From assembly GCA_965224245.1 (NCBI GenBank), contig OZ245046.1, forward strand, positions 352,001 through 416,000: DNA of 64,000 nucleotides. Direction: 5' to 3'. Origin of the DNA: Candidatus Eiseniibacteriota bacterium (lineage in GTDB: Bacteria; Eisenbacteria; RBG-16-71-46; CAZAMP01). Positions within the stretch are counted from its first letter, which is position 1, and each line of letters opens with the position of its first letter. This document shows positions 3,564 through 56,793 of the stretch, one piece after another. A model generated the notes under the pieces. That model was not told the DNA's origin. It did no database searches and saw only the letters and a list, made by a program, of their open reading frames with translations. The translations under genes and the position numbers were made by a program.

Positions 3564-4145
3564 ATGCCCGACCGGCCCGTGCCCGACGTCGCCGCATTCC
3601 TGCGTACCACATCGGCGGGTGCCTCGCCCTCCGACGTGGAGATCGACCGTCTCTTCGCGGTGCTCTACGTGGAGCTGCGGGCAATGGCGGGCGGAATCCT
3701 GTCCGACCAGGTGACCCACCGCACGCTGACCCCCACCGTGCTCGTCAACGAGGCGTATCTGCGCCTGGCTCGCGGTGTCCAGACGAGCTGGCAGTCACGC
3801 GCTCACTTCCTCGGCGTTGCCGCGAAGGCGATGCGGCACGTGCTGGTCGACTATGCCCGGCGGCAGCGGGCGCAGCGACGCGGCGGCGACTGGAAGCGCG
3901 TGTCCATCCCGTTCGATTCGGAGATGCCGGCCACCGCGCCGGAGGCCGACGTCATTGGGCTCCACGAGGCGCTCGAGCGCCTCGGATCGGAGGACCCCCG
4001 CATGGCCCAGGTGGTCGAGCTACGGGTGTTCGCGGGACTGTCCGCAGAGGAGACCGGGCACGTCCTGGGGCTTTCGCGTCGGACGATCACCAAGCACTGG
4101 AAGGTGGCGTGCCTCTGGCTCGCTCACGAGATGTCCGAGGAGTGA
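3564..4145 (+). CDS. ECF RNA polymerase sigma factor, TIGR02999/ECF43-like
   Basis: LFAVLYVELRAMA, TLTPTVLVNEAYLRL, HFLGVAAKAMRHVLVDYAR, VVELRVFAGLS, W-x4-WL. Start moved to ATG 3564 (AGAGGT RBS); TAGAAT -10-like hexamer near 3509. Confidence 0.92.
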   Translation: MPDRPVPDVAAFLRTTSAGASPSDVEIDRLFAVLYVELRAMAGGILSDQVTHRTLTPTVLVNEAYLRLARGVQTSWQSRAHFLGVAAKAMRHVLVDYARRQRAQRRGGDWKRVSIPFDSEMPATAPEADVIGLHEALERLGSEDPRMAQVVELRVFAGLSAEETGHVLGLSRRTITKHWKVACLWLAHEMSEE

Positions 4146-5230
4146 GACGACGCCGTGCGGGTTGCCGGCACGCCTGGAGCGGTCGGACCCGGAGGGTGAT
4201 CCAGGTCATCCTGACGGTCATCCCGCTCACGGTCGCCGCGGCGGGCACCGATCCGATCCCCACCGATCCTGTCCCGAGCCACCGTATGTGTCCCGAATAC
4301 GTGCTGAGCTGGGGGGAGCGGGGCGTGGGCCCGGGGAAGTTCCAGGCGCCGCGGGTGGTCGCGCTGGCGCCCGACGGCGACGTGCTCGTGCTCGACACCC
4401 GGTCCTACCGGGTTCAGCGGTTCTCCGCGAACGGCAGCTTCGAGCGCGAGTGGCACGCGTCACGACCCTCCGACGTCGATCCGCCCCACGGGCTGGCCGT
4501 CGGCGACGACGGACGGATCTACGTCTCGCACGTCGGCCGCATCGACGTCTTCGATCCCGAGGGACGTCTGTCCCGGGTGATCGAGATCGAGGGCAACGTG
4601 GGAGCCATCTCGGTGTCGGACTCGCAGGGGATCGCCGTGCTGATCGGGACCCACGAGGTCTGCCGGCTCGCACCCGACGGAGCCGTCCGCGCCCGTTGGG
4701 GTGGCGACGGGGACGGCCCGGGGCAGTTTCGCTGGGCGAGCGACCTCGCGATCGGTGCGGGGGAGGTCGTGTACGTGCTCGATCGTTCCGAGGCTCGCGT
4801 GCAGTGCTTCTCACCCGACGGCGAGCTGCTTCGCGCCTGGGGCGGGCGGGACTACGCAGCCGTGCACCTGCAGCAGCTAGCGGCCATCGCCTGTCATCCC
4901 GATGGCCGGGTCTTCGTCGTCGATTCGCCGAGCAAGCGGGTCCTCGTCTTCGACGCGCTCGGCGAGCTGCTCTGCACCTGGGGCGAGGGCGGACGCACGC
5001 CGGGCACCTTCGACAGGCCCGTGTCGATCACCGTCGGTCCGCTCGGTGTGTACGTGTGCGACGAGGCAAGAGCGCGCATTCAGCTCTTTCGCGAACCCGA
5101 GAGTCGGATCCGTCCGGTGATCTGGCCCGCGGCTCGCCGGTGGCTGAACGCTGAGGACGTCACCGATCCCGAGGTGTCTCGAACGCCGCCGCCCGGTCAG
5201 GCGTCCCCCAGGCCTCGTAAAGACCGATGA
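4142..5230 (+). CDS. NHL-repeat six-bladed beta-propeller protein, probably exported
   Basis: Repeats WGERGVGPGKFQAPRVVA, WGGDGDGPGQFRWASDLA, WGEGGRTPGTFDRPVSITV. GTG 4142 overlaps the sigma stop (GTGA); alternative GTG at 4196. Hydrophobic N-terminal stretch. Confidence 0.85.
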   Translation: MRRRRAGCRHAWSGRTRRVIQVILTVIPLTVAAAGTDPIPTDPVPSHRMCPEYVLSWGERGVGPGKFQAPRVVALAPDGDVLVLDTRSYRVQRFSANGSFEREWHASRPSDVDPPHGLAVGDDGRIYVSHVGRIDVFDPEGRLSRVIEIEGNVGAISVSDSQGIAVLIGTHEVCRLAPDGAVRARWGGDGDGPGQFRWASDLAIGAGEVVYVLDRSEARVQCFSPDGELLRAWGGRDYAAVHLQQLAAIACHPDGRVFVVDSPSKRVLVFDALGELLCTWGEGGRTPGTFDRPVSITVGPLGVYVCDEARARIQLFREPESRIRPVIWPAARRWLNAEDVTDPEVSRTPPPGQASPRPRKDR

Positions 5231-7664
5231 GGTCCGCACGAACCTCGTCGCGCATCGTCTGAGTGCCGGCGCCGCCATCCGCGAGCCGGCGGTCGCTGGC
5301 CAGGAACAGGGACTCGGCCGCCGCGTAGCGGTGGAGTCGCATCAGGCAACGACCCAGCAGGCGGTCGGTCTCGGCGAGCAGGATCGGCTGGTCCAAGGGC
5401 CCCAGAGCCAGCCGTAGACGTCGAAACACCGGCTCCGCCTCCTCGGGACGGCCGAGATCCAGGAGCGAACGACCGAGGCCCAGGAGCATTCCGGTCGCGT
5501 TGAGGTTCTCGTCCCCGATCAGATCGGCCGTGATGCCGAGCGCCTCGCGGTACATGGGCTCGGCCTCGGTCGGCTGTCCGAGCGCGCGCTTCACGTCGGC
5601 GTGGTGACTGAGTGCCAGGGCATAGGAGCTGTTCGGACCGTTCCGCGCGAACATGTCCGGGAGGATTTCCCGGTAGAGCGAGTCCGCGATCTCGAAGTTC
5701 CCGGCGAGCCGGTGCATGCGCGCGCGCCTGGTCGGGATCGATCCGATCAGACTCACGCTGTCCCCGAAGGTCTCACGCAAGAGGGCTCGACTCCGCGCGT
5801 ACAGGGAATCGGCGTGGCGTATGGCGCCCCGGGCGTCCTCCAGCAGAGCCAGACGGTACAGGGCGAGGGCGATCTCGTAGCGATCGTCGGTCGATGCGGT
5901 CCGTCGTGAGAGTACGCGCGTGAGCGCGGCGCCGGCCTCGTCCGTCTCGCCGTTGGCCAGCATGACATTGGCCAGGTTCAGCTCGAGCTCCAGCAGCCGG
6001 GGATCGTCGCCGCCGCGTTCGACCCGAAGCAGCGAGAGCGACTCGTGGTACAGAGACTCGGCCTCCGCGTAGCGACCGCGCGTGGCATGGATCGAGGCCA
6101 GGTCCGCCAGCAGGTCCACGCGACGCTCGACGTTCGCTCCCGCGCTCGCGGCCAGCGCTGCGCGAAGCTCGCGCTCGGACTCGTCGAAGAGATCGAGGTT
6201 CCGGTAGGCGTGCCCGAGAAGCGACCGCACCTGCAACACCAGGTCCGGATCGGCGAGCGTCTCGCCGGTGCGTCGCGATGCCTCGTCGAGCACGATTCGT
6301 GACGTCGTCGCGCCGAGCACGCCCGTCAGGTACTCGTTGACGCTCTCGGTCCGTGCGCGTTCCCGACGCTGCTGCTGCCAGAGGAACGACATCGCCACGC
6401 TCGTTCCCACCGACACCACGAAGATCACGGTGAGCAGGGAGACGACGGCGCGATGTCGCTGCACCATCTTCCTCACGGCATAGAGCGTCGACGGGGGACC
6501 GGCCGTCACCGCTCGTCCCACGAGATACCGCTCGACGTCCGAGGCGAGATCCGAGGCGGACTGGTAGCGCCGCTCGGGCTCCTTCTCCAGCGCGCGCATC
6601 GTGATCCACTCGAGCTCTCCGGTGAGCCGTCGGAGCAGCTCGCGGGGGGTGGTCGCCCGTGCACCGGCGACCCCGGCCGCGGCCTCGCCGAGCTCGGAGA
6701 CGCGTGCGGCGGGCGACGGGGGAACGACGTCGCGTATCAGCCGGATCGCTCGCTCGAGCCCCTCCGCGTGCAGATCGTCGGGATCGAGCGGGAGGACTCC
6801 GGTCACCAGCTCGTAGAGCAGCACGCCGAGGGCGTAGACGTCGGTGCGCGAGTCGATGGCACCGGGCCGGAAATCGGCTTGCTCGGGGCTCATGTACTCG
6901 GGCGTCCCGATCACGTGTCCGGCCACGGTGCCATCGGCGCCGGGAAGGCCGGACGTCTCCAGCGACTTGGCCACGCCGAAGTCGATCACCTTGGGAATCG
7001 GTGTTCCCTCGACCTCGGTCACCAGGACGTTCGTCGGCTTGATGTCCCGGTGGATGATGCCCTTGCGATGGGCGTGCTCGACCGCGCGGCACACCTGACC
7101 GAACAGCCGGAGGCGTTGCCCGATCGTGAGGCGGCGCTCGTCGCAGTACGTCGTGATCGGCGGACCGTCCACGAGCTCCATGACGAAGAAGGGGCGTCCG
7201 GCGTCGGTGGTTCCCGCCTCGAAGATCCGCGCGATGTGGGGATGCTCCATCAGGGCCAGCGCCTGGCGTTCGGTCTCGAAGCGAGCGATCACGTCGCGCT
7301 CGTGCATGCCGCCGCGGATCACCTTCAGCGCCACGTTCCGGCTCAGGGGGCCGGTCTGGTGGGCGAGGTAGACGCTTCCCATCCCACCTTCGCCGATCGC
7401 ATCGATGATCCGATAGGGTCCGATCGTCGTGCCCGGTGGGATGCCCGCGGCAACGGGGGGCACACGCGCGCCGAGCAGTCGGTCGACCGGAGCCGACGTG
7501 GCGAGAATCGACGGCAGGTCCTCCGCGGACGCCATGATCGCCCTGACGCGGCGCTCGAGGTCCGGATCGCCGTCGCACTGCTCCGCGAGGATGGCCGTGT
7601 GCCTCGACGGGTCGGCATCCACCAGGATGGAGAGAATCTGACGTATCCGCTGCGAGCTCGACAT
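5160..7664 (-). CDS. Membrane-anchored Ser/Thr protein kinase with C-terminal TPR region
   Basis: IGEGGMGSVY, VALKVI, HRDIKPTN, DFG, GTPEYMSPEQ, DVYALG; TM helix AVVSLLTVIFVVSVGTSVAMSFLW; TPR-like repeats (GRYAEAESLYHESL, EAEPMYREAL). AGGAG RBS. Confidence 0.95.
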   Translation of the reverse strand: MSSSQRIRQILSILVDADPSRHTAILAEQCDGDPDLERRVRAIMASAEDLPSILATSAPVDRLLGARVPPVAAGIPPGTTIGPYRIIDAIGEGGMGSVYLAHQTGPLSRNVALKVIRGGMHERDVIARFETERQALALMEHPHIARIFEAGTTDAGRPFFVMELVDGPPITTYCDERRLTIGQRLRLFGQVCRAVEHAHRKGIIHRDIKPTNVLVTEVEGTPIPKVIDFGVAKSLETSGLPGADGTVAGHVIGTPEYMSPEQADFRPGAIDSRTDVYALGVLLYELVTGVLPLDPDDLHAEGLERAIRLIRDVVPPSPAARVSELGEAAAGVAGARATTPRELLRRLTGELEWITMRALEKEPERRYQSASDLASDVERYLVGRAVTAGPPSTLYAVRKMVQRHRAVVSLLTVIFVVSVGTSVAMSFLWQQQRRERARTESVNEYLTGVLGATTSRIVLDEASRRTGETLADPDLVLQVRSLLGHAYRNLDLFDESERELRAALAASAGANVERRVDLLADLASIHATRGRYAEAESLYHESLSLLRVERGGDDPRLLELELNLANVMLANGETDEAGAALTRVLSRRTASTDDRYEIALALYRLALLEDARGAIRHADSLYARSRALLRETFGDSVSLIGSIPTRRARMHRLAGNFEIADSLYREILPDMFARNGPNSSYALALSHHADVKRALGQPTEAEPMYREALGITADLIGDENLNATGMLLGLGRSLLDLGRPEEAEPVFRRLRLALGPLDQPILLAETDRLLGRCLMRLHRYAAAESLFLASDRRLADGGAGTQTMRDEVRADLIGLYEAWGTPDRAAAFETPRDR

Positions 7665-8037
7665 GGCACTCCTACGCGAGAGGCCGCGATTCGATCACAT
7701 CTTACGTACGATCGGAGGACCGGATCAAATGGTGGAGAGGGGTGCGCTGTCGGGAGGACGAGAAGAGCCCCCTCGACGAGCGCCGAGGGGCTCGGGACCG
7801 CTCTCGACGGAGAGGGGGGGCAGCGAATCTGGTTGACCGCCTCGTCGAGCAGCTTCTCGTCTGCCAGCGTCACCGCGCCGACCACCTCTGGCCGCACCAT
7901 GATCGACGAGACGCCGATCAACGCGGCCGGCAGGTGCCGTCGGCCGGATGGGTCGCATGTCGGGCGCTGGAACGGGACGGACGCCCCCGTGCTAGGATCG
8001 AAGGCGCACCGCTCCAACCCACTCCCGGAGACGAACC

Positions 8038-13904: not shown

Positions 13905-16900
13905 CTAATCGGTAGCCCCGGTGGCGACCAGAATTGCGGTGTCCCGATCCAGGCTCCGACCGCGGTTCCAGGCGGCCGAGAATGCCTCCGCACCGAGCGC
14001 CCGCTCGAGCGCCGTGCGGTTCTCGTTCAGAAACTCCGAGATCTGCGGGAGTGTGTGGGACCCCGCGGCCCGGGTGCGATCGTCCCAGCTCGCCAGGAGC
14101 GTCGCCGCCCGGGCCGGATCGTCGCTCCGGCGAGCCAGGCGGACGGCCTGCTGGATGGCATCGGTGATCAGGCGCTCGTCGCCGAACTCCTGCACGGTCA
14201 ACAGGCTCTCGGCCAGGAGCGCCCGGGTCTCGCTCTCGTCGCGGGAGTCCACCGTGATCGCGACCAGGTTCAGCAGCACGATCGCGACCGACGAGCGATT
14301 GCCCAGCTCACGGAACATCCGAAGACTCTCCTCGTAGTGCTCGATCGCACACCGGTCGTCACCGGCAGCCCGGGCCAGGCGGCCCAGGTTGTTGAGCGCC
14401 GTCGCGATGCCCGAGCGATCCCCGAGCTCGCGGAGAATGGACAGGCACTCGTCCAGTAGCGTCCCGGCCTGGGCCAGGTTCCCGGTTGCCTCCTCCACCG
14501 TCGCCAGGTTGTTCAGCGATGCGGCCACGTTGTTCCGGTCCCCCTGTCGCCGGCGGATGGCCAGGCTCTCGGTGTATGCCGCGCGGGCGTCCTCCAGGCG
14601 TCCGGTCAGAAAGGCGACCGCACCGAGCCCGTTGAGTGCGAGGGCGACGCCTCCCTCGTTCCCGACCGCCTCGTACGTGCGGTGGCTCTCTCGATAGTGG
14701 GCCTCCGCGGCGTCCCACTCACCGAGATCCCGGAGGACGTTCCCCAGGTTGTTCAGGGACTCGGCGACCGCCGTGGGCTCGCCGAGCTGCCGGCGAATGT
14801 CCAGGCTCCGTTCGAGCAGAGCGCGTGCCTCGGCGTACTCTCCCTGAAGCTTCGCGAGATTCCCCGACCAGCTGAGGCACAGCGCGGACGCGGCGTCGAT
14901 CCCCGGCTCGGCGGCGTCGAACAGCCGGTGGTACGCGGCTCGTCCGGCCTGCCAGCGTCCGGCCACGACCCAGTACCGACCGAGCGCGCCGGCCAGTCGT
15001 GCGGCCCCGCCGAGCTCGCCGGTGTCGAACAGTGTCTCCAGAGCACGCTGGAGGTTGTTCTGGTCGGTCCGCAGCCGGGTCAGCCACTCGACCTGGTGCG
15101 ACGTCGTCAGCTCCGGTGCAGCCCGCTCGGCCAGAGTCACGAAGTACATGGCGTGCCGCATCGCCAGATCGGCGAGCTCCTCGGCCTCGGTGAGCCGCTC
15201 GCGCGCGTACTCGCGCACGGTCTCCAGCATGCGATAGCGCGTGGAGTCGGTCGACGAGTCGGCGACGCGTACGTCCACGAGCGACTTGGAGACGAGCTCG
15301 GAGATCAGATCCAGGACCTCCCACTCCTCGATCCCGTCGACCGCACAGACCGTCTCCGCGGCCTCGAGCGTCCATCCGCCGGAGAAGACCGACACGTAGC
15401 GCAGCATCCTCCGCTCGGTGTCGTCCAGGAAGTCGTAGCTCCAGTCGATCAGCTCGCGAAGCGTCCGGTGGTGCCCCGCGGCCTGACCGCGCCTGGAGCC
15501 GAGGACGCGGAAGCGGTGGACGAGCCGCGCGTCGAGGTCGTCCACCGAGAGCACGCGGAGCCGCGCGGCGGCCAGCTCCAGCGCCAGCGGGATTCCATCG
15601 AGGCGCCGGCAGATGCCGGCGACCACGCCCGCGTTCTCGGCGTCGAGCACGAACTCGGGCCGCGCCGCCCTGGCGCGATCCACGAACAGCCGGACGGCAT
15701 CGTTGTCGACCAGATCCTCGAGACACGTCGCGGCGTCGACCGGGGGAGGAGTGAGCGTCGAGATCGGGAACACGACCTCGCCGCTCTCACCGAGCGGCTC
15801 CCGGCTCGTCGCCAGCACGAAGAGCGCACGGCAGCTCTGCAGGAGCGATCGCACGACCCGCCGGCAGTCGTCGAGCACGTGCTCGCAGTTGTCCAGTACG
15901 AGCAAGACGTGCCGTTGCGCCAGGTGCGACTGGAGGCTCTCGAGCGGGGACTGTCCCGGTGCGTCACGCACCCCCAGGACGCGTGCGATGGCGCCCTCGA
16001 TGCCGCCCGCGGCGGTCAGGCCCGCCAGCTCGATCAGCCACAGCCCGTCGAACCCGGTGGAGACGAGCTCCCGTCCGACCTCGACCGTGAGCCGGCTCTT
16101 GCCGCCGCCCGCGGGGCCGGTAACGGTCACGAGTCGATTCTCCGCGACCAGCTCGACGAGCGTGGACAGCTCCCGCTCACGACCGACGAAGCTGCTGATG
16201 GACGCCGGGAGGTTGTTCTCGGCGCCGAGGTCGCCGGGCGATCCGTCCCGGGCCCGGAGCGTGGCCTGGATCTCCTCGAGCGCCTGCCGGAGCGCCGTCA
16301 TGCTCTCGAGCCGAGCGCCGGGATCCTTCTCCAGGCAGTGCATGACCAGGAGCCGGAGGGGATGGTCGGGCGAGAGCTCGCAGTCCGACAGCTCGGGGTC
16401 CACGGTCAACGTTCGGTTCAGTCGATCGCGGATGGTCGAGCCGGGGAACACCGGACGCCCCGTCAGGAGCTCGCCGATGATGCAGCCCAGCGCGAAGACG
16501 TCGGTACGCGCATCCTCCCGCGCGCCCCGGATCTGCTCTGGGCTCATGTACCCCGGTGTTCCGGCGATCTGGCCGCCACCTCTGTTGCCGGCGTCGCGAC
16601 CGGCGCCCTGCTCGATGCTCGACTCCAGCGCGAGCGCGATCCCGAAGTCGAGCACCTTGACCTCGCCATCCGAGCGGATCATCACGTTCTGCGGCTTCAG
16701 GTCGCGGTGAACGATCCCTTGCTCGTGCGCCGCTTCGACCGCCATTGCGATCTGGCGGCAGATCCGGACGATCTCCTCGAGACTCCCGGAGTCATCGGGT
16801 CGCCAGCCGGCGAGCGAGACGCCGTCGATGAACTCCATGGTCAGGAAGATCGTGCCGTCGGCATCCTCGAGCGAGTGAACCGTCGCCACGTTGCGATGAT

Positions 16901-17258
16901 TGAGCGCGGCCAGCAGCTGCGCTTCACGTCGGAAGGCGATGAACGCGTTGCGATCGGTGGACAGGACGTCGGGCAGGATCTTCAGCGCGATGCGTCGGCC
17001 GAGCTGAGGGTCTCGCGCGACGTACACGACTCCCATGCCACCCCGGCCGAGCTCACTCAGGATCGGATAGCGTCCGATCGTGCTAGGGTACGAGTCCGCA
17101 CCGAGTGCGATGGTCTCGTCGGACGACGTTGCGACAGTCCGTGCGGTCGCGCCGGCGTCGGGCGGAGATGCAACCTCGGTGTGCGGCGGATCGCCGGCGA
17201 TCGTCGGGATGTCTCCCGTGTCGGCGTCCGGCTTGTCGGGATCGCGACGACTCGTCAT
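13905..17258 (-). CDS. Cytoplasmic Ser/Thr kinase + STAND (NB-ARC/COG3903-like) ATPase + TPR protein
   Basis: LGRGGMGVVY, HRDLKPQN, DFG, GTPGYMSPEQ; NLPASISSFVGRERE, Walker A GPAGGGKS, Walker B LLVLDNCEH, GIPLALELAA, YRMLETVREYA; TPRs (AESLNNLGNV). No TM helix seen. Confidence 0.95.
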   Translation of the reverse strand: MTSRRDPDKPDADTGDIPTIAGDPPHTEVASPPDAGATARTVATSSDETIALGADSYPSTIGRYPILSELGRGGMGVVYVARDPQLGRRIALKILPDVLSTDRNAFIAFRREAQLLAALNHRNVATVHSLEDADGTIFLTMEFIDGVSLAGWRPDDSGSLEEIVRICRQIAMAVEAAHEQGIVHRDLKPQNVMIRSDGEVKVLDFGIALALESSIEQGAGRDAGNRGGGQIAGTPGYMSPEQIRGAREDARTDVFALGCIIGELLTGRPVFPGSTIRDRLNRTLTVDPELSDCELSPDHPLRLLVMHCLEKDPGARLESMTALRQALEEIQATLRARDGSPGDLGAENNLPASISSFVGRERELSTLVELVAENRLVTVTGPAGGGKSRLTVEVGRELVSTGFDGLWLIELAGLTAAGGIEGAIARVLGVRDAPGQSPLESLQSHLAQRHVLLVLDNCEHVLDDCRRVVRSLLQSCRALFVLATSREPLGESGEVVFPISTLTPPPVDAATCLEDLVDNDAVRLFVDRARAARPEFVLDAENAGVVAGICRRLDGIPLALELAAARLRVLSVDDLDARLVHRFRVLGSRRGQAAGHHRTLRELIDWSYDFLDDTERRMLRYVSVFSGGWTLEAAETVCAVDGIEEWEVLDLISELVSKSLVDVRVADSSTDSTRYRMLETVREYARERLTEAEELADLAMRHAMYFVTLAERAAPELTTSHQVEWLTRLRTDQNNLQRALETLFDTGELGGAARLAGALGRYWVVAGRWQAGRAAYHRLFDAAEPGIDAASALCLSWSGNLAKLQGEYAEARALLERSLDIRRQLGEPTAVAESLNNLGNVLRDLGEWDAAEAHYRESHRTYEAVGNEGGVALALNGLGAVAFLTGRLEDARAAYTESLAIRRRQGDRNNVAASLNNLATVEEATGNLAQAGTLLDECLSILRELGDRSGIATALNNLGRLARAAGDDRCAIEHYEESLRMFRELGNRSSVAIVLLNLVAITVDSRDESETRALLAESLLTVQEFGDERLITDAIQQAVRLARRSDDPARAATLLASWDDRTRAAGSHTLPQISEFLNENRTALERALGAEAFSAAWNRGRSLDRDTAILVATGATD

Positions 17259-19084: not shown

Positions 19085-19663
19085 CTATTCGGGTAGAGGT
19101 TCCGAGGTCCCGCCGGTCAGCTGCGTTCGAAGCCAGCGGCGCGCGAACTGCCAGTCACCGTTGACCGTTTTTCGAGAGACGCCACAGATCGACGCGATCT
19201 CCTCACCGGTCAGTCCGGCGAGGATCTTGAGCTCGACGACCCGGGACACGCGCTCGTTGGCCAGGCGGAGACGCTCGAGCGCACGGGCCAGATCCGACGC
19301 CGGCGCGATGATCTCCTCACCGCCCGCGGCATCGTCGGCGAGCTCGACGCGGGTCCACCCGTGTCCGCGCCGCACCGTCTTGCGCGCCCGGGCGTGATCC
19401 ACGAGCACCTGACGCATGACGCGGGTGGCGATGCCGAGAAACCGAACGCGGTCCTCGCCGTCCAGCTCGGCGCGGGCGGCGAGACGCAGGTAGACCTCGT
19501 TCAGGAGCGCAGTCGGTTGAAGCGTGTGGTCGTCGCGCTCGTGGCGCATCTCGCGGCTCGCCATGCGCCGGAGCTCCCGGTAGGCGACGTCGAAGAGCTG
19601 GTCGATCGCATCCCGCCGGCGGTCCTCGTCGGTCCCCTCCGGTCGATCGTCGTGGACGCTCAT
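19085..19663 (-). CDS. ECF RNA polymerase sigma factor, TIGR02999/ECF43-like
   Basis: LFDVAYRELRRMA, HTLQPTALLNEVYLRL, MRQVLVDHAR, VVELKILAGLT, DWQFARRWL; GGGAG RBS before ATG 19663. Confidence 0.93.
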   Translation of the reverse strand: MSVHDDRPEGTDEDRRRDAIDQLFDVAYRELRRMASREMRHERDDHTLQPTALLNEVYLRLAARAELDGEDRVRFLGIATRVMRQVLVDHARARKTVRRGHGWTRVELADDAAGGEEIIAPASDLARALERLRLANERVSRVVELKILAGLTGEEIASICGVSRKTVNGDWQFARRWLRTQLTGGTSEPLPE

Positions 19664-19926
19664 GTGGGCGCTCCCTGTTCCTGCACGTCTGAAGCCTACC
19701 ACGTGGCCCGGCGAGGCGGAGGCATCGGTGACCGGAGCACCGGATGGGGCGGGGCCTCCGGTACGATACTCAACACCCATCATCGCAGTCGATTGCACGT
19801 TTCGGCCCGGCATGCCACGATTCGGGCTCGGAGATGTCGTCTCTGGGTACGGTGACGCCGGCTCGACGTTGCACGCTCGGTGGATCACGACGCCGGCGCC
19901 CACGTTGCCGAAACGAGGACTCACCA

Positions 19927-22900: not shown

Positions 22901-23514
22901 ACCTCGTGTCACTCCTGAACAACCTGGCGCTGCTGTCGCTCGAGACCGACGATGCGCGCTCGGCGGACGAGTATGCGTGCGAGGCGCGCGAGGTGGCGAT
23001 CGAGCTGGGAAGCGCCGGACAGGCGACGCACGCCCTCTACCTGGCCGGGCTCGCCAAGATCTTCGCGGATCGGTCGATGGCCCGCGAACGCCTCCGGCAG
23101 GCCATCGAGGAGTCGCGCGCGGCCACGTGGGCGGCCGGGCTCGTGCACGCGCTCAACGGGATGCTCCACGTCGAGGTGCTGGACGAGCGCTTCGAGGAGG
23201 CCTGGGCCATCGGGCTGGAGCTGATGGAGCTCCTGACGCCGATCGACGGGCTGATCGCCGCCACCACGCTGGGCGCGTGCGCGCGGACCCGGCTCGCGCT
23301 CGGGTCGCCCTCCGACGCCGCGTTTCTGCTCGGCGCGGCCGAGGAGGCCCGGGAGCGCTCGAACGCCCCGTTTCCTCGGGGAAACCGGCAGCTGATCGAG
23401 GACTGGAGCCGGATGACGCGGGATTCCCTCGACGCCGCGGACTTCGAGCGGTGGTGGAACGAAGGGCGGAAGGCTCCCCTGGAATCGCTGCGCAGCCGGT
23501 GGGCGGGGGGGTGA
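19927..23514 (+). CDS. Cytoplasmic Ser/Thr kinase + STAND ATPase + TPR protein
   Basis: LGAGGMGIVY, HRDLKPSN, DFG, GTPGYMSPEQ; Walker A GFGGAGKT, LVILDNCEQ, GLPLAIELA, YGMLETIRTYA. TTG 19927 with GAGGA RBS; divergent from the ECF gene. Confidence 0.93.
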   Translation: MSEPDLNRLRDLVVAVLDLPAEERDSYLEGACGGDDTLLSSVKRLLNEEPIDADRSHALDAVGGDEAIANAAALPERVGRYEILGRLGAGGMGIVYLAVDPSLDRRVALKVLPPRLAGDAAGIARFREEARLLARLNHPNIATIHSLEAAGEVVFITMEHVHGPTLAARIGSDARDDELRIAYEIACALEAAHAKGIVHRDLKPSNVIVSSETGTVKVVDFGLAKLARERSDSPAAAAAPAVPSASIDASWSLVLGTPGYMSPEQVRGETTDEGSDIWAFGCVLYELSTGTRAFDGSAVDRMVATLARDVDLECVRGRAPDAVHDLVERCLRIDRDERLRSIAEARRILGSLLQVSASFHGDLDAPTATESLAETLPTYTTRLVGREREIDEISTLLTDRLVVTLTGFGGAGKTRLATEVARRSADRFPDGCWFVDLAPASDEDDVLQLTLSVMNLRETAGESPVDTLVSFLRTRRALVILDNCEQVVDACSALAAMVTRGCPRTRVLATSRSALFVGGGQIYAVAPLARPAADGAFDEARRSPAVTLLEDRAKLIDMSFELSESNFRAVSEICRRLDGLPLAIELASTRLDAMTPDELLESLEGRLPLQGHGPAGPDRHRSLTGLVAWSYDRLSDAEQAFLRRLSVFRGGWTLRSAEAVCSDPGSELVPAWQVLDLTRTLVQRSLIERATVVAGGLERSRYGMLETIRTYAADQLHAHGEEEAIRARHVQYFLAQPTDPGHDGTTSATWIALVSADDDNFTAALSEPYRRSISLFEATSLARQLLHYWTVTGRWRRGQRVYQSLVDAIVREGQTGTRHHAEAVAGVGRLVALRGENDLARKLLTEARRIGLEIDEEDVVSVCDTGLSYLARIERRFDEALELADRRVRHWEPRCGSADVPTPQERSVRRHLSAALLDRGQCLARFGRFDEAGADFEWAHELASSVGDVGGSALPRAALAGVKHRTGDVDAARDLYLEALAYMRTAKQRDNNLVSLLNNLALLSLETDDARSADEYACEAREVAIELGSAGQATHALYLAGLAKIFADRSMARERLRQAIEESRAATWAAGLVHALNGMLHVEVLDERFEEAWAIGLELMELLTPIDGLIAATTLGACARTRLALGSPSDAAFLLGAAEEARERSNAPFPRGNRQLIEDWSRMTRDSLDAADFERWWNEGRKAPLESLRSRWAGG

Positions 23515-51705: not shown

Positions 51706-51871
51706 TGGGGGGAGATCCGGCACCAGCCGACGGTCAGCCCATCGGGACGGGTGGGCTCGGGAGGTCGGAGTGGACAGAATGCCCCCCGCCGCGTGCTCCA
51801 TCGCGCCCTGAGCCGTGCCTGTTGCTCGACCGTGCGGATCGTCAGCTGCCACCGTTTCGCGGAGAGTGCGA

Positions 51872-51880
51872 TGCTATACT
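51872..51880 (+). promoter_or_regulatory. Extended -10 promoter element TGCTATACT
   Basis: TGn-TATACT ending 7 nt before ATG 51888; no RBS in between. Confidence 0.6.
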
Positions 51881-51887
51881 CTCAGCC

Positions 51888-52160: not shown

Positions 52161-52162
52161 CG

Positions 52163-52756
52163 GTGGTCGGCTCGCGCCGTCCCCCGAGCGAGTCCACGGC
52201 CACCCTGCTCACCCGTGTGCGAGCCGGTGACGCCGCGGCACGCAACCGCCTGTTCGCCCGTTACCTCCCGATGCTCCAGGCGTGGGCACACGGCCGGCTG
52301 CCCGCGAATGCGCGGAATCTCTCGGACACCGACGACCTCGTGCAGATCACTCTCATTCGAGCATTGAATCGGGTGGAGGCCTTCGTACCGACCCGGGAGG
52401 GGGCGTTCCTGGCCTACCTGAGGCAGATCCTGCTCAACGCCGTGCGCGAGCAGATCCGCCGTTCCCGGAGGCGGGGTGATCAGGAGCCCGTGACCGAGGA
52501 GCTCCCGGGAACCGGTCCCTCGCTGATCGAGGAGCTCGTCGGCCGGGAGCTTCTGGCGTCGTACGAGGAGGCGCTGGTCACGCTGGACGCCCGACAGCGC
52601 GAGGCCGTGATCCTGCGCGTCGAGTTCGGATTCGACTACGGCGAGATCGCCGAGGCGATCGGCAGCCCGTCGCGAAACGCCGCACGCATGGTCGTGAGCC
52701 GCGCGCTGGTGAGGTTGAGCGAGGCGATGAACGAGCAGTCGAAGGATGAGGCATGA
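52163..52756 (+). CDS. ECF RNA polymerase sigma factor, kinase-associated type with DTDD motif
   Basis: STATLLTRVRAGDAAARNRLFARY, SDTDDLVQ, FLAYLRQILLN, REAVILRVEFG-x-DYGEIA, AARMVVSRALVRL; stop overlaps the kinase start (ATGA). Start approximate. Confidence 0.9.
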   Translation: MVGSRRPPSESTATLLTRVRAGDAAARNRLFARYLPMLQAWAHGRLPANARNLSDTDDLVQITLIRALNRVEAFVPTREGAFLAYLRQILLNAVREQIRRSRRRGDQEPVTEELPGTGPSLIEELVGRELLASYEEALVTLDARQREAVILRVEFGFDYGEIAEAIGSPSRNAARMVVSRALVRLSEAMNEQSKDEA

Positions 52757-55700
52757 GTGACCGGGAGCGGCGTCTTCTGGACATCGCGAGCTCCGTCGCG
52801 GATCGAGCGGAGGTCGACTGGGATCAGGCCGACGACGGTGTGGTGACCGACGTCGTCAGACGCTTGCGGGACGTCGAGCGCGTCATGCACGGGTTCCAGA
52901 CGATCGGTCCCGCGGCCGGGGCGGCGGGTGACGGTGAGCGTGGCTCCCGGCCCGCGCCGCGGTTCCGCTGGGGGCCGATCGAGGTGTTCGAGCGCGTGGG
53001 CAGGGGATCGTTCGGAGACGTCTACCGGGCCGTGGACACGCGGCTGGACGCCGAGGTCGCGCTGAAGATCGAGCGACCGGGCGCGTCCAGCACGCCCGCG
53101 GTTCGCGCGATCCTCGACGAGGCGCGGCAGATGGCCCGCGTTCGGCACCCGAACGTGGTCGCCGTACACGGGGCCGACGTTCACGACGGCCGCGCCGGCT
53201 TCTGGATGGACTACGTGCGCGGCCCCACGCTCGAGGAATACGTGAGCGAGCGGGGCGCGCTCCCGGTCGCGGAGGCGGCCCGCATCGGATGCGATCTGTG
53301 TCGGGCACTGTCGGCCGTCCACGGTGCCGGTCTGGTCCACGGCGACGTCAAGCCCGGGAACGTGATCCTGAACCCCGACGGTCGGGTCATGCTGGCGGAC
53401 TTCGGCGCCGTGAGCGACCGGACCCGTGCACCGGCCGACTGGGTGAGGTCGACGCCCGTCGTCACCGCGCCGGAGGTGTGGTCGGGCGCGGCCGTGTCGC
53501 CGCGGGCCGACGTGTACGCACTGGGTGTCGTCCTCCACTGGATGGTCACGACCGCCTGGCCCGTGGACGGGGCGGATGCGGCCGAGATCGCCTCGCGTCT
53601 GGAGCGAGGGGATCGCGCCGATCTGGGCGCTCTCGCACCGGCGCTCCCCGGGTCGTTTCGGGAAGCCATCGAGTCGGCACTCGCCACCGATCCGGACGAG
53701 CGCCCGGTGGGCCCCGGCGCTCTCGAGACCACACTGCGTGCCTCGGTGCCCGGCGATGCGTCGTCGCCGGAGCCCGGTCGTTCCCGCGGGGGTACGAACC
53801 TCCCGATCGCGACGTCGTCGCTCGTCGGGCGGCGCGACGAGCTCGACGAGCTGCGCAGGCTGGTCGGCGATCACCGGATCATCACGCTGACGGGGACTGG
53901 GGGATCCGGCAAGACGCGACTGGCGCTGGAGATCGGCAGCCGTGCGCTGCCGGACTTCCCGGACGGGGCATGGCTGGTCGAGCTGGCGGACGCCAGCGAG
54001 GCGGACGCGGCACCGCGTCGCGTGAGCACCGTGCTCGGGACCCCGGACGCCCCCGCGGCCGCCGCGCTGACCGGACTCGCCGCGCATCTGGCCCCCCGAC
54101 GGCTCCTGTTGATCCTCGACAACTGCGAGCACGTGCGCGAGTCCGTCGCGGAGGTCGTGGAGGCGATCGCCGGTGCGTGTTCGGCGGTGACGATCGTCGC
54201 CACGAGCCGGGAGCCCCTGGGGGTGGCGGGCGAGGTCCTGTTTCGCGTCCCACCACTGACCGTTCCGTCCGCGGAGGATGACCCGTGGCAGGCCTGCGTG
54301 AGCTCCGAGGCGGCCCGGCTCTTCGTGGAGCGCGCGACCGCGGTCCGCCGTGACCTCGCACTGACCCCGGACGTCGCGAGGGCGATCGTCTCGATCTGCC
54401 GACGGGTCGAGGGGCTTCCCCTCGCGGTCGAGCTCGCGGCGTCGCGCGCTTCGGGGCTTCCCGTGGAGGAAATCGCGCGCGAGCTCGACGGTCACTTCGG
54501 GCTCCTCGAGCGGGCCGGCCGCACCGGGAGCCACCGGCACCGTACCCTGACCGCGCTCATCGACTGGAGTCACGAGCTTCTCACCGAGCGCCAGCGCGCC
54601 CTGCTGTCCAGGCTCGCCGTGTTTCGCGGGGGCTTCGGGGTCGAGGACGCCCAGGTCGTGTGCGCCGGAGGCGACCTTCCGGCCGAGCTCGTACCCGAGC
54701 TGCTCGGCGAGCTCACCGAGCGGTGCCTGGTCGAGCTCGACGTCAGGAGCTCGCGTCGCCATCGCATGCTGGAGACGATTCGCGAGTACGCGCGCGAGCG
54801 CCTGCGCGCCGCCGGAGAAGAGGCGGTGACGGCGCGGCGGCACCTCGCCCGGTACACGTCGGTCGCCGAGGCCGCGATGGATGCGAACGTGCCGGACCGT
54901 GCGGCGGCGATCGGGCGGCTCGATGCGGATCACGACAACCTGCGGGCGGCGCTCCGCACCGCACTCGAGATGGGGGCCGAGGACCCGGACGACGGTGCCG
55001 CCGACCGGCTGGCCGCGGCCCTCGGGGATTACTGGATGCACGGCGGACACTGGAGCGAGGGACGCAGCTGGTGTCGGGAGGTGATCGCACACCGTCCCGA
55101 GACGTGCTCGGCACATCGCGCGGAGGTGCTGCGAATCGCCGGCAACCTCGAGTACATGTCGAGCAGCGTGCCCGATGCGCTCGAGTACTACACGGCGTCG
55201 CTGGCCATGTCAGAGGCGACCGAGGACCGCAAGCGGGCCGCCCGCGCGTCCATGGGGATCGCGGTCGCGGCGAAGGACCTGGGCGACCTCCCTCGAGCGC
55301 ACGAGGCGCTCTCCCGCAGCCTGGCCATCTTCCGGGATCTCGGGGACCGAACCGGGGTCGCGCAGTCGCTGGGAAACCAGGCCCTGCTCCTGCGAACCGA
55401 GGGTCATCTGGAGGACGCGTACGTGCGTCTCTCCGAAGCCGAGGAGCACTTCCGTGCGCTGGATCGCCAGCTCGACGTCGCGAACTGTCTCACCAATCGC
55501 GGGAACATCGCCGACGACCTCGAGCGGATCGAGGAGGCGGCCGCCCTTCGCACCGAGGCGCTCGCACTGGCTCGCCGGCTGGGCAACCGTCACTACGAAG
55601 CCGCCGCACTCAATGCGCTCGCCCACAGCGCGTTCGCGGCCGGCACCCTGGAGCGGGCGCGGGAGCAGGCCGAGGCGGCGCTGGCCATCTTCCGCGACAT

Positions 55701-56100
55701 GGACAACCGCGGCGAGGAGGCCGCCGTGCTCGGACTGCTGGCCCGGCTCTCGCTGGCCGAAGGCGACATCGAGCGCGCGCGGGTCCATCTCCGGCGCGCG
55801 CTCCATCTGCGGATCGCGCAGGGCAACGAGAACACGCTGGGCAGCACCGTCTGGCTGTTCGGTCATCTGGCCCTGGAGGATGGGAAGCCGGAGGTGGCGC
55901 TCCGGCTCCAGGCAGCGGCCCGAGCTCACTTCGTCGCGCTGGGCAATCCGACCTACCTGAGCAGGTTCTACGACTCGGACGCGATCGATGCCCGTGCCGA
56001 GGCGATGCTCGACCCGGAGTGTGCGGCGCGATGCCGGGCCGAGGGCGCCCGGCTCACGCTGGACGGGGCGATCCGGATCGCGCTCGCCGCCTGCGGCTGA
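52753..56100 (+). CDS. Cytoplasmic non-RD Ser/Thr kinase + STAND ATPase + TPR protein
   Basis: VGRGSFGDVY, VALK, HGDVKPGN, DFG, APE, DVYALG; Walker A GTGGSGKT, LLILDNCEH, GLPLAVELAA, HRMLETIREYA; TPRs. Confidence 0.93.
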   Translation: MSDRERRLLDIASSVADRAEVDWDQADDGVVTDVVRRLRDVERVMHGFQTIGPAAGAAGDGERGSRPAPRFRWGPIEVFERVGRGSFGDVYRAVDTRLDAEVALKIERPGASSTPAVRAILDEARQMARVRHPNVVAVHGADVHDGRAGFWMDYVRGPTLEEYVSERGALPVAEAARIGCDLCRALSAVHGAGLVHGDVKPGNVILNPDGRVMLADFGAVSDRTRAPADWVRSTPVVTAPEVWSGAAVSPRADVYALGVVLHWMVTTAWPVDGADAAEIASRLERGDRADLGALAPALPGSFREAIESALATDPDERPVGPGALETTLRASVPGDASSPEPGRSRGGTNLPIATSSLVGRRDELDELRRLVGDHRIITLTGTGGSGKTRLALEIGSRALPDFPDGAWLVELADASEADAAPRRVSTVLGTPDAPAAAALTGLAAHLAPRRLLLILDNCEHVRESVAEVVEAIAGACSAVTIVATSREPLGVAGEVLFRVPPLTVPSAEDDPWQACVSSEAARLFVERATAVRRDLALTPDVARAIVSICRRVEGLPLAVELAASRASGLPVEEIARELDGHFGLLERAGRTGSHRHRTLTALIDWSHELLTERQRALLSRLAVFRGGFGVEDAQVVCAGGDLPAELVPELLGELTERCLVELDVRSSRRHRMLETIREYARERLRAAGEEAVTARRHLARYTSVAEAAMDANVPDRAAAIGRLDADHDNLRAALRTALEMGAEDPDDGAADRLAAALGDYWMHGGHWSEGRSWCREVIAHRPETCSAHRAEVLRIAGNLEYMSSSVPDALEYYTASLAMSEATEDRKRAARASMGIAVAAKDLGDLPRAHEALSRSLAIFRDLGDRTGVAQSLGNQALLLRTEGHLEDAYVRLSEAEEHFRALDRQLDVANCLTNRGNIADDLERIEEAAALRTEALALARRLGNRHYEAAALNALAHSAFAAGTLERAREQAEAALAIFRDMDNRGEEAAVLGLLARLSLAEGDIERARVHLRRALHLRIAQGNENTLGSTVWLFGHLALEDGKPEVALRLQAAARAHFVALGNPTYLSRFYDSDAIDARAEAMLDPECAARCRAEGARLTLDGAIRIALAACG

Positions 56101-56196
56101 GCGTGACCGCTCCTGACGAGCCGACGCCGAACGACTCGTAGCCCCGGTCTCCTCCGTGGATCCGTACTCCGGAGAATCCCGCGCCGCCGGACGCGA

Positions 56197-56793
56197 TCAT
56201 GTGTCGGGTCGCCCGCCGGGCTCATCCGACATCGCATGACGGAGCCACATCTTCGCGAACCACCACTCCCGCTGCACCGTGCGCCGTGAAAGATCGAGGA
56301 CATGCGCGATCTCGTCCTCGGTGAGCCCGCCGAAGAAACGGAGCTCGACGACCTGAGCGGCGCGTGCGTCCTTCTCGGCCAGCCGATCGAGCGCGTCGTC
56401 GAGCTCGAAGAGATCCACGTCGGCCCGGGCGAGGACGTTCAGACGCTCGTCCAGCGTGACGCGCTCCCAGCCGCCGCCGCGCTTGGCCGCCGCGCGCTCG
56501 CGGGCGTGGTCGACGAGAACCTGTCGCATCGCACGAGCGGCGACCCCGAAGAAATGGGCCCGGTCCTCCCATCGCAGGTCCGTTGCACCGACGAGCCTCA
56601 GGTAGGCCTCGTTGACGAGCGCGGTCGGCTGCAGCGTGTGTCCGGGTCGCTCGCGATGCATCAGGCCGGATGCGAGTCCGCGAAGCTCCCGTTGCACGGC
56701 GGCGAACAGGCGCTCGGCCGCCCCGGGGTCGGCGTTCGGCCCGGAGGCGGCGCTCAGGAGCTGCGTCAGATCGGGCGGCTGTGCGGACGTCAC
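56197..56793 (-). CDS. ECF RNA polymerase sigma factor, TIGR02999/ECF43-like
   Basis: DLTQLL, HTLQPTALVNEAYLRL, DRAHFFGVAARAMRQVLVDHAR, AAKRGG, VVELRFFGGLT, EWWFAKMWL. Confidence 0.95.
   Translation of the reverse strand: MTSAQPPDLTQLLSAASGPNADPGAAERLFAAVQRELRGLASGLMHRERPGHTLQPTALVNEAYLRLVGATDLRWEDRAHFFGVAARAMRQVLVDHARERAAAKRGGGWERVTLDERLNVLARADVDLFELDDALDRLAEKDARAAQVVELRFFGGLTEDEIAHVLDLSRRTVQREWWFAKMWLRHAMSDEPGGRPDT

Follow-up and report, generated by a model that had tools for sequence, protein, structure and literature searches.

ECF sigma factors are defined by their sensing of conditions outside the cytoplasm, and the kinase-activated members that have been studied rely on membrane receptor kinases. 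A locus of Candidatus Eiseniibacteriota bacterium (GenBank assembly GCA_965224245.1, contig OZ245046.1, positions 352,001 to 416,000) raises the question of whether such a sigma factor may also be served by a soluble kinase with a cytoplasmic sensor. The original prediction, made from the letters of this 64,000-nucleotide stretch (the window), proposed that soluble kinases fused to a STAND ATPase and a TPR array phosphorylate neighbouring ECF sigma factors, which in turn would direct transcription of secreted propeller and adhesin genes.

Sigma factors and kinases of the window

Profile searches identify four ECF sigma genes (E1 to E4) and four Hanks kinase genes (PK1 to PK4) within 54 kb. In the order of their coordinates, and with the one gene that separates E1 from PK1, they are as follows:

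E1, 3564..4145, plus strand: ECF43-type sigma factor by profile and motif, 193 aa; PF07638 157 bits, TIGR02999 172.9 bits; motif T-P-T-V; ATG start with GAGG upstream
NHL-repeat beta-propeller protein, 4109..5230, plus strand: NHL 70 bits; N-terminal hydrophobic segment; start uncertain; lies between E1 and PK1
PK1, 5160..7664, minus strand: membrane Hanks kinase; Pkinase 133 bits; TPR_12; one TM helix with an extracytoplasmic TPR part; HRD and DFG motifs
PK2, 13905..17258, minus strand: soluble kinase-STAND-TPR protein; P-loop NTPase module (AAA_22) and TPR_12; member of a phylum-wide clade without a sigma neighbour
E2, 19085..19663, minus strand: ECF43-type sigma factor by profile and motif; PF07638 138 bits, TIGR02999 166.8 bits; motif Q-P-T-A; ATG at 19663; divergent from PK3
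PK3, 19927 (or 19744)..23514, plus strand: soluble RD Hanks kinase-STAND-TPR protein; Pkinase 151 bits, NB-ARC 32.0 bits; start at TTG 19927 or ATG 19744
E3, about 52163..52756, plus strand: kinase-linked ECF sigma factor of a second type; Sigma70_r2 47 bits, PF07638 only 32 bits; motif D-T-D-D; start uncertain, the nearest candidate being GTG 52163
PK4, 52753..56100, plus strand: soluble non-RD (HGD) Hanks kinase-STAND-TPR protein; Pkinase 122 bits, NB-ARC 24.6 bits; forms an operon with E3; convergent with E4
E4, 56197..56793, minus strand: ECF43-type sigma factor by profile and motif, 198 aa; PF07638 185 bits, TIGR02999 209.6 bits; motif Q-P-T-A; PK4 is the sole kinase nearby

The same profile searches returned no match to an anti-sigma family among the neighbours of any sigma gene in the window, and the spacing of the genes leads to the same conclusion. 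The stop codon of E3 and the start codon of PK4 overlap as ATGA, the stop codons of PK4 and E4 face each other tail to tail across 96 nt, and E2 and PK3 diverge from a gap of 266 nt, so that there is no space for an anti-sigma gene beside these sigmas. E1 and PK1 are about 1 kb apart with only the propeller gene between them, and in its longest frame the hydrophobic segment falls at about residue 30, the sequence before it being too short for an anti-sigma domain. Four ECF sigmas and four Hanks kinases in 54 kb, devoid of an anti-sigma gene, are therefore just what had been predicted, and the same holds for the setting of the modules among exported-protein genes, since the neighbours mostly encode exported proteins with a C-terminal domain of the FlgD_ig/Por_Secre_tail type. 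The density itself is unremarkable for a genome that encodes 100 kinases and in which the window falls inside a kinase-rich region (about 25 kinases at 78–440 kb of the contig, C1).

A reading of the sigmas as ECF43-type stands for three of the four. E1, E2 and E4 score above the curated cut-off of TIGR02999 (126.15 bits), and in their sigma-2.2 region Q/T-P-T-A/V replaces the acidic DxxD. This is the hallmark of ECF43, in which the acidic motif (DAED/DxxD) gives way to uncharged residues and a conserved Thr, according to the available text of PMC13147305 and PMC8999054; a description that matches the sigmas of this genome is also found in the portion of PMC8103513 at hand. Of the 44 ECF43 paralogues in the genome, 42 have a Thr as the acceptor residue and lack DxxD. 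A phmmer search with E4 against PDB sequences gave no match. E3, on the other hand, reaches only 37.6 bits against TIGR02999; its best match is TIGR02984, at 84.8 bits against a cut-off of 183.75, and its D-T-D-D motif is acidic. By sequence, then, E1, E2 and E4 are ECF43-type sigmas and E3 belongs to a different kinase-linked sigma family that has retained the acidic residues, for which reason a mechanism that restores charge may not apply to it. The same caveat is raised for groups other than ECF43 in the available part of PMC8999054.

The systems to which these genes bear the closest resemblance are EcfK-PknS of Xanthomonas citri and EcfP-PknT of Vibrio parahaemolyticus: E1, E2 and E4 belong to the same sigma family, with the uncharged sigma-2.2 region and the Thr, and there too a Hanks kinase gene lies alongside and an anti-sigma gene is absent. 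PknS is described as a transmembrane receptor kinase, and PK1 reproduces its layout of kinase, single TM helix and outer TPR part (PMC13147305, as far as its available text goes).

Soluble kinases with a STAND ATPase and TPR repeats

Whereas PK1 contains a single strong hydrophobic helix (residues 407–425, Kyte-Doolittle 2.31), the same hydropathy measure finds no TM helix in PK2 or PK3, and the sole borderline segment of PK4 (1.81) is the strand that follows Walker B, inside the ATPase. NB-ARC exceeds its Pfam cut-off of 23.5 in both PK3 and PK4, and the NTPase module of PK2 is recognized by AAA_22, with AAA_16 and nSTAND1 remaining below their own cut-offs. Walker A (G-x4-GK[ST]), Walker B (hhhhDN), G[LI]PLA and MLET align in all three proteins; TPR_12 repeats follow the NTPase module in each; and the columns G56, G59, G61, K62 and D131 of the ATPase module (NOD) are invariant among 74 homologues. 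Divergence is greatest in the TPR part, with 25–36% identity as compared to 38–42% for the NOD. Profiles, aligned motifs and hydropathy thus confirm the proposal of three kinases that have no TM helix and are fused to a STAND ATPase and TPR repeats.

The kinase domains are not all alike. PK1, PK2 and PK3 have the full set of Hanks motifs (Gly-loop, VAIK Lys, HRD catalytic loop and DFG), whereas the catalytic loop of PK4 reads HGDVKPGN, which makes it a non-RD kinase that keeps the catalytic Asp, Lys and Asn as well as DFG and has a short activation loop. The idea that these kinases are turned on in trans is weakened to that extent, as trans-phosphorylation of the activation loop may not apply to PK4.

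Among the three ATPase modules, that of PK4 was modelled (pLDDT 91.4, pTM 0.88). The model aligns with resting NRC2 (Z 25.3, rmsd 3.2, 339 aligned), the STAND-TPR protein 6mfv (Z 24.7), MalT (Z 24.7) and ADP-bound Apaf-1 (Z 23.5), with fold matches that cover 324–375 residues, and more weakly with Avs3 (Z 11.7). Closed forms fit much better than resistosomes, for which the rmsd is 15–16 Å. By sequence, AfsR was the sole solved NOD to be reached (E 9e-4). As modelled, then, the ATPase module of PK4 is a genuine STAND/NLR-type NBD-HD-WHD-arm fold, which, with the aligned motifs of PK2 and PK3, upholds the predicted STAND ATPase.

Fold and architecture nonetheless point in different directions with regard to NLRs. 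PK4 shares the fold of its nucleotide-binding oligomerisation module with NLRs and Apaf-1, but in those proteins the sensor is LRR or WD40, the effector is CC, TIR or CARD, and the outcome for NLRs is cell death; in PK2, PK3 and PK4 the sensor is TPR, the effector is a kinase and the expected outcome is transcription. A strict assignment to the animal or plant NLRs was considered and rejected, as TPR_12 serves as sensor and Pkinase as effector where an NLR would have LRR with a death-fold, TIR or CC domain. The three proteins are NLR-like, not members of the NLRs. The NBD-HD-WHD-arm fold followed by a TPR sensor is likewise common to the PK4-type NOD and to MalT, AfsR and the PH0952-type protein (6mfv). 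The output of the MalT/AfsR type is a DNA-binding domain, whereas here it is a protein kinase, and the signal would reach DNA by way of a phosphorylated sigma.

A described precedent is PknK of Mycobacterium tuberculosis, a soluble STAND-type Ser/Thr kinase that phosphorylates the transcription regulator VirS (available text of PMC4381067, PMC9045387 and PMC1262709). It resembles PK2, PK3 and PK4 in being soluble and in having an N-terminal Hanks kinase followed by a MalT-like ATPase, an architecture compared here through the literature only (PMC4381067, PMC1262709, both as available in part). It differs in that the available portion of PMC9045387 describes no sigma partner gene and gives SigM phosphorylation as 'not confirmed'. 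Neither the pairing of an ECF sigma with a STAND kinase nor a sigma-kinase fusion was found described in the literature searched, the catalogued partner-kinase architectures of ECF43 being outside the reach of that search.

Adjacency, recurrence and fusion

The genome encodes 44 ECF43 sigmas and nine E3-type sigmas beside its 100 kinases. A kinase-linked sigma lies within 1 kb of 45 of these kinases and of 11 of the 22 STAND kinases. When compared with 500 random placements, contig C1 has 44 kinases this close to such a sigma as opposed to a random mean of 4.0 (maximum 11), and for the STAND kinases the 11 observed stand against a mean of 1.07 (maximum 4). The other half of the STAND kinases (11/22) have no sigma nearby. 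The expected enrichment of sigmas beside kinase-STAND genes is thus evident, at 11/22 where about one would be expected, and it recurs in other genomes of the phylum, where 6/40 ECF43 genes adjoin a STAND kinase. What does not hold is the notion of STAND kinases as the preferred partner. Membrane kinases occupy that place, both in this genome (27/50 TM kinases as against 11/22 STAND kinases are sigma-linked) and among the 33 ECF43 genes with a kinase within 1 kb in the 40 other genomes (21 TM, 6 STAND). Loci of the E3 type elsewhere have a kinase directly downstream in 23 of the 26 that have room for one, and at least four of the 23 are STAND kinases.

The two families may even occur in one polypeptide. 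Four single-chain fusions of an ECF43 sigma to kinase, STAND and TPR domains occur in three genomes that span three families of the phylum: one in this genome, identified by Pfam domains at 2978589–2982230 of contig C1, two in G039 and one in G008. In three of the four the fused sigma retains Q-P-T-A/E; in the one from this genome the acceptor Thr is lost (D-P-A-G). Sigma-linked and fused STAND kinases are concentrated in basal clades of the tree (support 0.87–1.0), and PK4 pairs with a sigma-linked kinase from another genome. In the NOD tree, PK3 and PK4 fall within a large, mostly orphan group outside the basal sigma-linked clades, and the closest relative of PK3 is an orphan paralogue. The only genome of the same family, G041, has no PK4 orthologue (its best match is 35% identical), which makes the modules of the window young and, in this form, unconserved.

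These data bear directly on whether the co-location is a matter of chance, that is, of two independently expanded families that are both dense in one chromosomal region. The position of the window within the kinase-rich region is compatible with this, and so are the unusual orientations, since no other ECF43-STAND pair of the genome is divergent like E2/PK3 or convergent like E4/PK4. For the family as a whole, however, chance is already contradicted by the adjacency counts, by recurrence elsewhere and by the fusions, and we regard it as quite improbable. A functional tie between the sigmas and the kinase-STAND-TPR proteins is supported, at the level of genome sequence, by adjacency far above chance, recurrence and four in-frame fusions.

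PK2 is the exception. Its clade extends to almost all genomes of the phylum, and yet only 2/60 genomes have an ECF43 gene within 1 kb of the kinase, and 0/60 have a strong E3-type sigma there. PK2 belongs to a conserved STAND-kinase clade without a sigma partner and probably has other substrates; the predicted kinase-STAND–sigma circuit remains a likely one for PK3 and PK4, which adjoin sigmas, and not for PK2. Loci of the PK2 type also show two downstream gene clusters (16/60 and 14/60) without a Pfam family. More broadly, the outputs of the NOD family are mostly other than kinase: the best 80 loci found with a NOD-only query come from many phyla and include two kinase fusions and one ECF43 gene.

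A further possibility is that these proteins act, in the manner of NLRs, as sentinels against phage or stress, in which the kinase would be a toxic or abortive effector and the adjoining sigmas would be incidental. The match of the NOD to immune NLRs and, more weakly, to Avs3 would fit, as would the PADLOC candidate model C3a189 'kinase', which spans the kinase and NOD of PK2 (residues 70–901, 173 bits). However, the remaining PADLOC matches do not extend beyond the kinase domain, and their scores for PK1, a membrane kinase, are just as good; the NOD resembles MalT and the archaeal STAND-TPR protein as closely as it does NLRs; and 22 paralogues in one genome, a near-universal clade in the phylum and in-frame sigma fusions speak of housekeeping signalling and not of a mobile defence gene. 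We consider a role as sentinels highly improbable.

A more serious alternative reverses the order of command. The kinase may be part of the regulon of the sigma, with the substrates of the STAND kinase elsewhere, or the kinase may switch the sigma off, or the STAND-TPR part may serve as a scaffold that sequesters the sigma as an anti-sigma factor would. Most pairs are operons with the sigma upstream (22 of the 35 ECF43-kinase pairs, co-directional, and 9/9 paralogues of the E3 type, each directly upstream of its kinase), which would have the kinase co-transcribed with the sigma; E3-type sigmas, with their acidic sigma-2.2, may need no phosphorylation to be active; the acceptor Thr is missing from the sigma that is fused in this genome; and PknK has several unrelated substrates (PMC9045387, in its available part). 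Against this, the Thr is retained in three of the four fusions and in 42/44 ECF43 paralogues, which at the same time lack the acidic motif, and studied members that lack this motif are inactive until phosphorylated (available text of PMC8999054 and PMC13147305). On balance we judge control of the kinase by the sigma to be unlikely.

A proposed kinase-to-sigma switch with a cytoplasmic sensor

The reading that we favour, and hold to be fairly probable, is that the window contains three kinase-to-sigma modules and one unrelated kinase, embedded in a genome-wide expansion of kinases and sigmas, and that the soluble STAND kinases phosphorylate the sigmas. What weighs against it are the atypical orientations of E2/PK3 and E4/PK4, the position of PK3 and PK4 in the NOD tree, the absence of a PK4 orthologue from G041, the STAND kinases that stand alone, the acidic residues of E3 and the loss of the acceptor Thr from the fused sigma of this genome. 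E1 with PK1 would be the classical form, an ECF43 sigma with a membrane kinase whose TPR sensor faces outward, as in EcfK/PknS, and with the gene of an exported NHL propeller between the two. E2 with PK3, its proposed kinase, would be a variant in which the ECF43 sigma is paired with a soluble kinase regulated by a STAND (NLR/MalT-type) ATPase and TPR repeats; E3 with PK4 would represent the sigma-then-kinase operon of the second conserved kinase-linked family, and E4 may be a second client of PK4. PK3 and PK4 differ from PknS in lacking a membrane helix, and a cytoplasmic STAND ATPase with TPR repeats takes the place of the extracytoplasmic sensor. The system is a variant of the known ECF43/kinase switch, and the soluble STAND kinase in place of a membrane kinase is its little-studied part.

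For PK3 and PK4 we infer the following chain of events. When the divergent TPR array binds a ligand or a protein in the cytoplasm, the ATPase would be freed from its closed, ADP-type state; the kinase domains would then be unmasked or drawn to one another through nucleotide exchange and self-association; the kinase would phosphorylate the conserved Thr in the Q-P-T-A motif of the sigma; and the phosphate would supply the missing negative charge that allows the sigma to bind RNA polymerase. A sigma of the E2 type would be intrinsically unable to bind core RNA polymerase before this, because its sigma-2.2 region has no acidic residues.

At the far end of the chain the original prediction fares poorly. 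Its secreted propeller and adhesin targets have in their favour a weak regional co-location, and no common promoter emerges from the upstream regions of the ECF43 genes. The hexamer GGATTG is present in 9/44 of these regions (1.17 expected) with no fixed position; enumeration of pairs of a 5-mer and a 4-mer separated by 15–19 nt found none in six or more of the 44 upstream regions; and GRCCG-N16-CTGTT, with 17 matches on contig C1, has none within 600 nt upstream of a gene with a sigma or kinase domain and none in the window.

A bolder proposal, which we put forward tentatively, is that kinase-STAND-TPR proteins are a bacterial 'transcriptional NLR', in which a cytoplasmic ligand on the hypervariable TPR array would promote the ATP-dependent assembly of a kinase signalosome that, by phosphorylation, licenses a dedicated, otherwise inert sigma. 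The four-domain fusions would be its one-protein form, and the paralogues with diverged TPR parts would make up a repertoire of intracellular receptors, each with its own promoter set.

Practical value is moderate, as all of the parts are known and the organism is of an uncultured type. If the favoured reading is true, two genes, or one fused gene, would nevertheless offer a tractable bacterial system for the control of a kinase by a STAND ATPase, a question shared with PknK of M. tuberculosis, and further handles would come from PK4 as a non-RD kinase and from the second conserved sigma family, whose genes always precede that of a kinase. Most broadly, a soluble NLR/MalT-type sensor would mean that the ECF phospho-switch reads intracellular signals too.

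The sigma and kinase genes of the window

The genome in question comprises 6.94 Mb in 27 contigs, with about 69% G+C. Genes of the window were called from GC3 and frame statistics and then scanned against Pfam, which recovered four ECF sigma genes (E1 to E4) and four Hanks kinase genes (PK1 to PK4).

Sigma and kinase genes of the window, all with Pfam support
3564-4145, plus strand: sigma gene E1
5160-7664, minus strand: Hanks kinase gene PK1
13905-17258, minus strand: Hanks kinase gene PK2
19085-19663, minus strand: sigma gene E2
19927 or 19744 to 23514, plus strand: Hanks kinase gene PK3
about 52163-52756, plus strand: sigma gene E3
52753-56100, plus strand: Hanks kinase gene PK4
56197-56793, minus strand: sigma gene E4

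In PK2, PK3 and PK4, a P-loop NTPase and TPR_12 repeats lie C-terminal to the kinase domain; NB-ARC scores above the Pfam cut-off in PK3 and PK4, and the Walker A, Walker B, G[LI]PLA and MLET motifs are conserved and aligned across the three NTPase modules. No membrane helix was found in these three proteins; PK1 has a single strong one (residues 407-425), followed by TPRs. The neighbours of the window sigmas yielded no match to anti-sigma families, and the genes are spaced too tightly to fit an anti-sigma gene. The inventory, motifs, helix prediction and lack of an anti-sigma gene therefore confirm the observation behind the original prediction, namely four sigmas with four Hanks kinases and no anti-sigma gene, three of the kinases being free of transmembrane helices and fused to a STAND ATPase with TPRs. 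At 3564-7664 the order is E1, a secreted cargo gene encoding an exported NHL propeller, and the membrane TPR kinase PK1; nearby, 8038-10665 (plus strand) encodes an 875-aa protein with an N-terminal MFS-like membrane domain and a spermidine/spermine synthase domain.

The Gly-loop, Lys, HRD and DFG are canonical in PK1, PK2 and PK3. PK4 has a short activation loop and the catalytic loop HGDVKPGN (HGD for HRD), and is therefore a non-RD kinase, a class usually independent of activation-loop phosphorylation.

E1, E2 and E4 score 172.9, 166.8 and 209.6 bits against TIGR02999 (cut-off 126.15); E3 falls below that cut-off, its best match being TIGR02984 at 84.8 bits (cut-off 183.75). Two features have been used to define the ECF43 group: a neighbouring Hanks kinase, and an uncharged sigma-2.2 motif in which DAED/DxxD is swapped for the consensus QTTA (STTA in EcfP) with its phospho-acceptor Thr (PMC13147305, PMC8999054, PMC8103513). 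The corresponding motif is T-P-T-V in E1 and Q-P-T-A in E2 and E4, and the Thr is present in 42 of the 44 ECF43 paralogues of this genome. E3 reads D-T-D-D, so the acidic residues are kept. It founds a second sigma family of nine paralogues (window 52163-52756 and eight elsewhere in the genome) with a conserved [DE]-T-x-D-L-V-Q motif, and each of the nine genes is immediately followed by a kinase gene in the same orientation.

Sigma-kinase adjacency within and beyond the genome

Pfam searches of the whole genome returned 100 Pkinase matches and 57 PF07638 matches, 44 of the latter strong. A census by profiles made from the window's own domains counted 44 ECF43-like sigmas and 100 frames with a kinase; a STAND module was present in 24 frames, and in 22 of these it is joined to a kinase. 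STAND modules lacking a kinase domain lie on contig C1, which carries the window, at 54588-57419 (plus strand, 944 codons) and 57522-60311 (minus strand, 930 codons); C1 ~78-440 kb, a kinase- and sigma-rich stretch of 360 kb that contains the window, holds about 25 of the genome's 100 kinase genes.

Kinases of the genome by sigma gene within 1 kb
STAND kinases (22): ECF43 7, E3-type 3, both 1 (PK4), none 11
Transmembrane kinases (50): ECF43 23, E3-type 4, both 0, none 23
Other kinases (28): ECF43 5, E3-type 2, both 0, none 21

When sigma genes were placed at random on contig C1 (500 trials), 4.0 kinases had a sigma within 1 kb (maximum 11) as against 44 observed, and 1.07 STAND kinases (maximum 4) as against 11, which excludes chance co-location for the family. 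The pair E4/PK4 taken alone may be fortuitous, its convergent orientation being unusual. The association of sigmas with kinases is thus real, yet STAND kinases share it with the other classes, and the commoner partner is a membrane kinase.

The "phylum" search set comprised 206 genomes, all from one class; its genome tallies (kinase-NOD junction, TIGR02999, sigma-kinase junction, E3-type) include the unpublished genome G072, and the fetched loci exclude it. TIGR02999 exceeds its cut-off in 120 of the 206. In 40 other genomes the surroundings of the best ECF43 were examined: 33 have a kinase within 1 kb of it and seven have none; 21 of the 33 kinases are transmembrane, six STAND and six other (two of the last cut by contig ends). 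E3-type sigmas occur in 116/206 genomes at 46-65% identity; 29 loci were fetched, and in 23 of the 26 with downstream room a kinase follows directly, at least four of the 23 being of STAND type.

A query spanning the junction of the kinase and the NOD (the nucleotide-binding oligomerisation module), which picks up the PK2-like clade best, matches 194/206 genomes at E <= 1e-20, many matches being full-length. From the PK2 query, 60 loci were fetched (best match +/- 8 kb, one per genome, selected only by upstream contig room). All 60 hold a kinase-STAND fusion; an ECF43 gene lies within 1 kb in two, with further ones at 2.2 kb (one) and 4.8 kb (one); no strong E3-type sigma comes as close as 1 kb in any of the 60. 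Therefore the PK2-like clade is essentially not sigma-linked, and the role of sigma partner proposed for a PK2-type STAND kinase falls away. Two clusters of uncharacterised genes without Pfam matches, one present in 16 of the 60 loci and the other in 14, lie on the same strand downstream of the orphan STAND kinase and could be the real partners of this clade.

The ATPase module and its history

An AlphaFold2 model of the PK4 NOD, built from a 74-sequence alignment (mean pLDDT 91.4, pTM 0.88), was compared with solved structures by VIA-align.

Solved structures matched by the PK4 NOD model
Resting NRC2 (8rfh): Z 25.3, rmsd 3.2 A, 339 aligned
Archaeal STAND-TPR protein (6mfv): Z 24.7, rmsd 3.6 A, 324 aligned
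MalT (8bob): Z 24.7, rmsd 3.2 A, 342 aligned
ADP-bound Apaf-1 (1z6t): Z 23.5, rmsd 4.3 A, 375 aligned

Foldseek concurs, and open resistosome forms deviate from the model at an rmsd of 15-16 A. Given the matches to NRC2, MalT and Apaf-1, "NLR-like", as originally proposed, is a fair name for the modelled fold; an NLR proper is ruled out by the TPR sensor and the kinase effector. AfsR is the only solved NOD detected by sequence (E 9e-4). Outputs of the NOD family are mostly not kinases (kinase fusions in 2 of the 80 closest loci of a broad genome collection); the full kinase-NTPase-TPR architecture is common in several phyla of a protein atlas, and PknK has been described as an example of this type (PMC4381067, PMC1262709, PMC9045387). 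Such proteins might alternatively constitute a defence system: one candidate defence-library model spans both kinase and NOD of PK2, but all other library matches are limited to the kinase domain.

A FastTree phylogeny covered 94 kinase-linked NODs (22 from this genome, 63 from the 60 PK2-query loci, six sigma-side, three foreign fusions; one duplicate removed). Its basal clades, each of five members (support 1.0, 0.99 and 0.87), hold sigma-linked and fused kinases, and most members of a 73-strong clade (support 0.94) are orphans. PK2 is placed among orphans; the sister of PK3 is an orphan paralogue (support 0.998) and that of PK4 a sigma-linked kinase of another genome, G015 (support 0.69). 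In G041, a genome of the same taxonomic family, PK4 has a single full-length kinase-STAND match, at 35% identity; the PK3 and PK4 modules are therefore lineage-specific. Pairwise identity among PK2, PK3 and PK4 is 32-46% for kinase domains, 38-42% for NODs and 25-36% for TPR parts, the lower TPR values fitting sensor diversification.

Possible output genes and direction of control

About 443 frames of the genome share a C-terminal domain of some 80 residues that begins P-N-P-F and resembles FlgD_ig and Por_Secre_tail, which suggests a very large sorted secretome. The window holds 12 such frames, where stretches of 64 kb average 4.2 (maximum 16).

Sigma genes with an exported-type gene nearby
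Within 1 kb: 17/52, random 14.9 +/- 3.3
Within 3 kb: 31/52, random 22.1 +/- 3.7
Within 5 kb: 38/52, random 27.2 +/- 3.6

The exported-protein theme is real, but its tie to the modules, of which it would be the output, is weak. No shared promoter motif was found upstream of the ECF43 genes of this genome, and the candidate GRCCG-N16-CTGTT is absent from these sigma and kinase genes; for 9/44 ECF43 genes, the preceding 300 nt contain the hexamer GGATTG (1.17 expected), at no fixed distance.

In one protein of this genome, sigma factor and kinase are a single chain: C1 2978589-2982230, minus strand (fetched locus L211:2590-6159, minus strand), is an open frame of 1,214 codons (1,190 aa from the first Met) with an ECF43-like Sigma70_ECF domain at 1-182, Pkinase at 214-447, AAA_22 at 502-606, and then TPRs. 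A sigma-kinase junction query brought up further full-length matches free of stops, one in G008 and a near-identical pair in G039; each of the three has sigma, kinase and STAND matches within one frame. The four fusions fall in three families of the phylum. The fused sigma motif is Q-P-T-A or Q-P-T-E in G039 and G008 and D-P-A-G in this genome, where the acceptor Thr is lost. Gene fusion is a classical sign that separate proteins act together.

In a full-text search no paper turned up that pairs an ECF sigma with a STAND kinase or reports a sigma fused to a kinase, although Iyer et al. 2020 or supplements may list such; kinase-linked ECF groups have been listed in a paper whose main text gives no kinase architectures (PMC7826278). 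As to direction, the sigma might merely drive the kinase gene; by analogy with the studied ECF43 systems, the kinase would activate the sigma. The ECF43 partner described there is a membrane receptor kinase, PknS (PMC13147305), whereas PK3 and PK4 are soluble STAND kinases.
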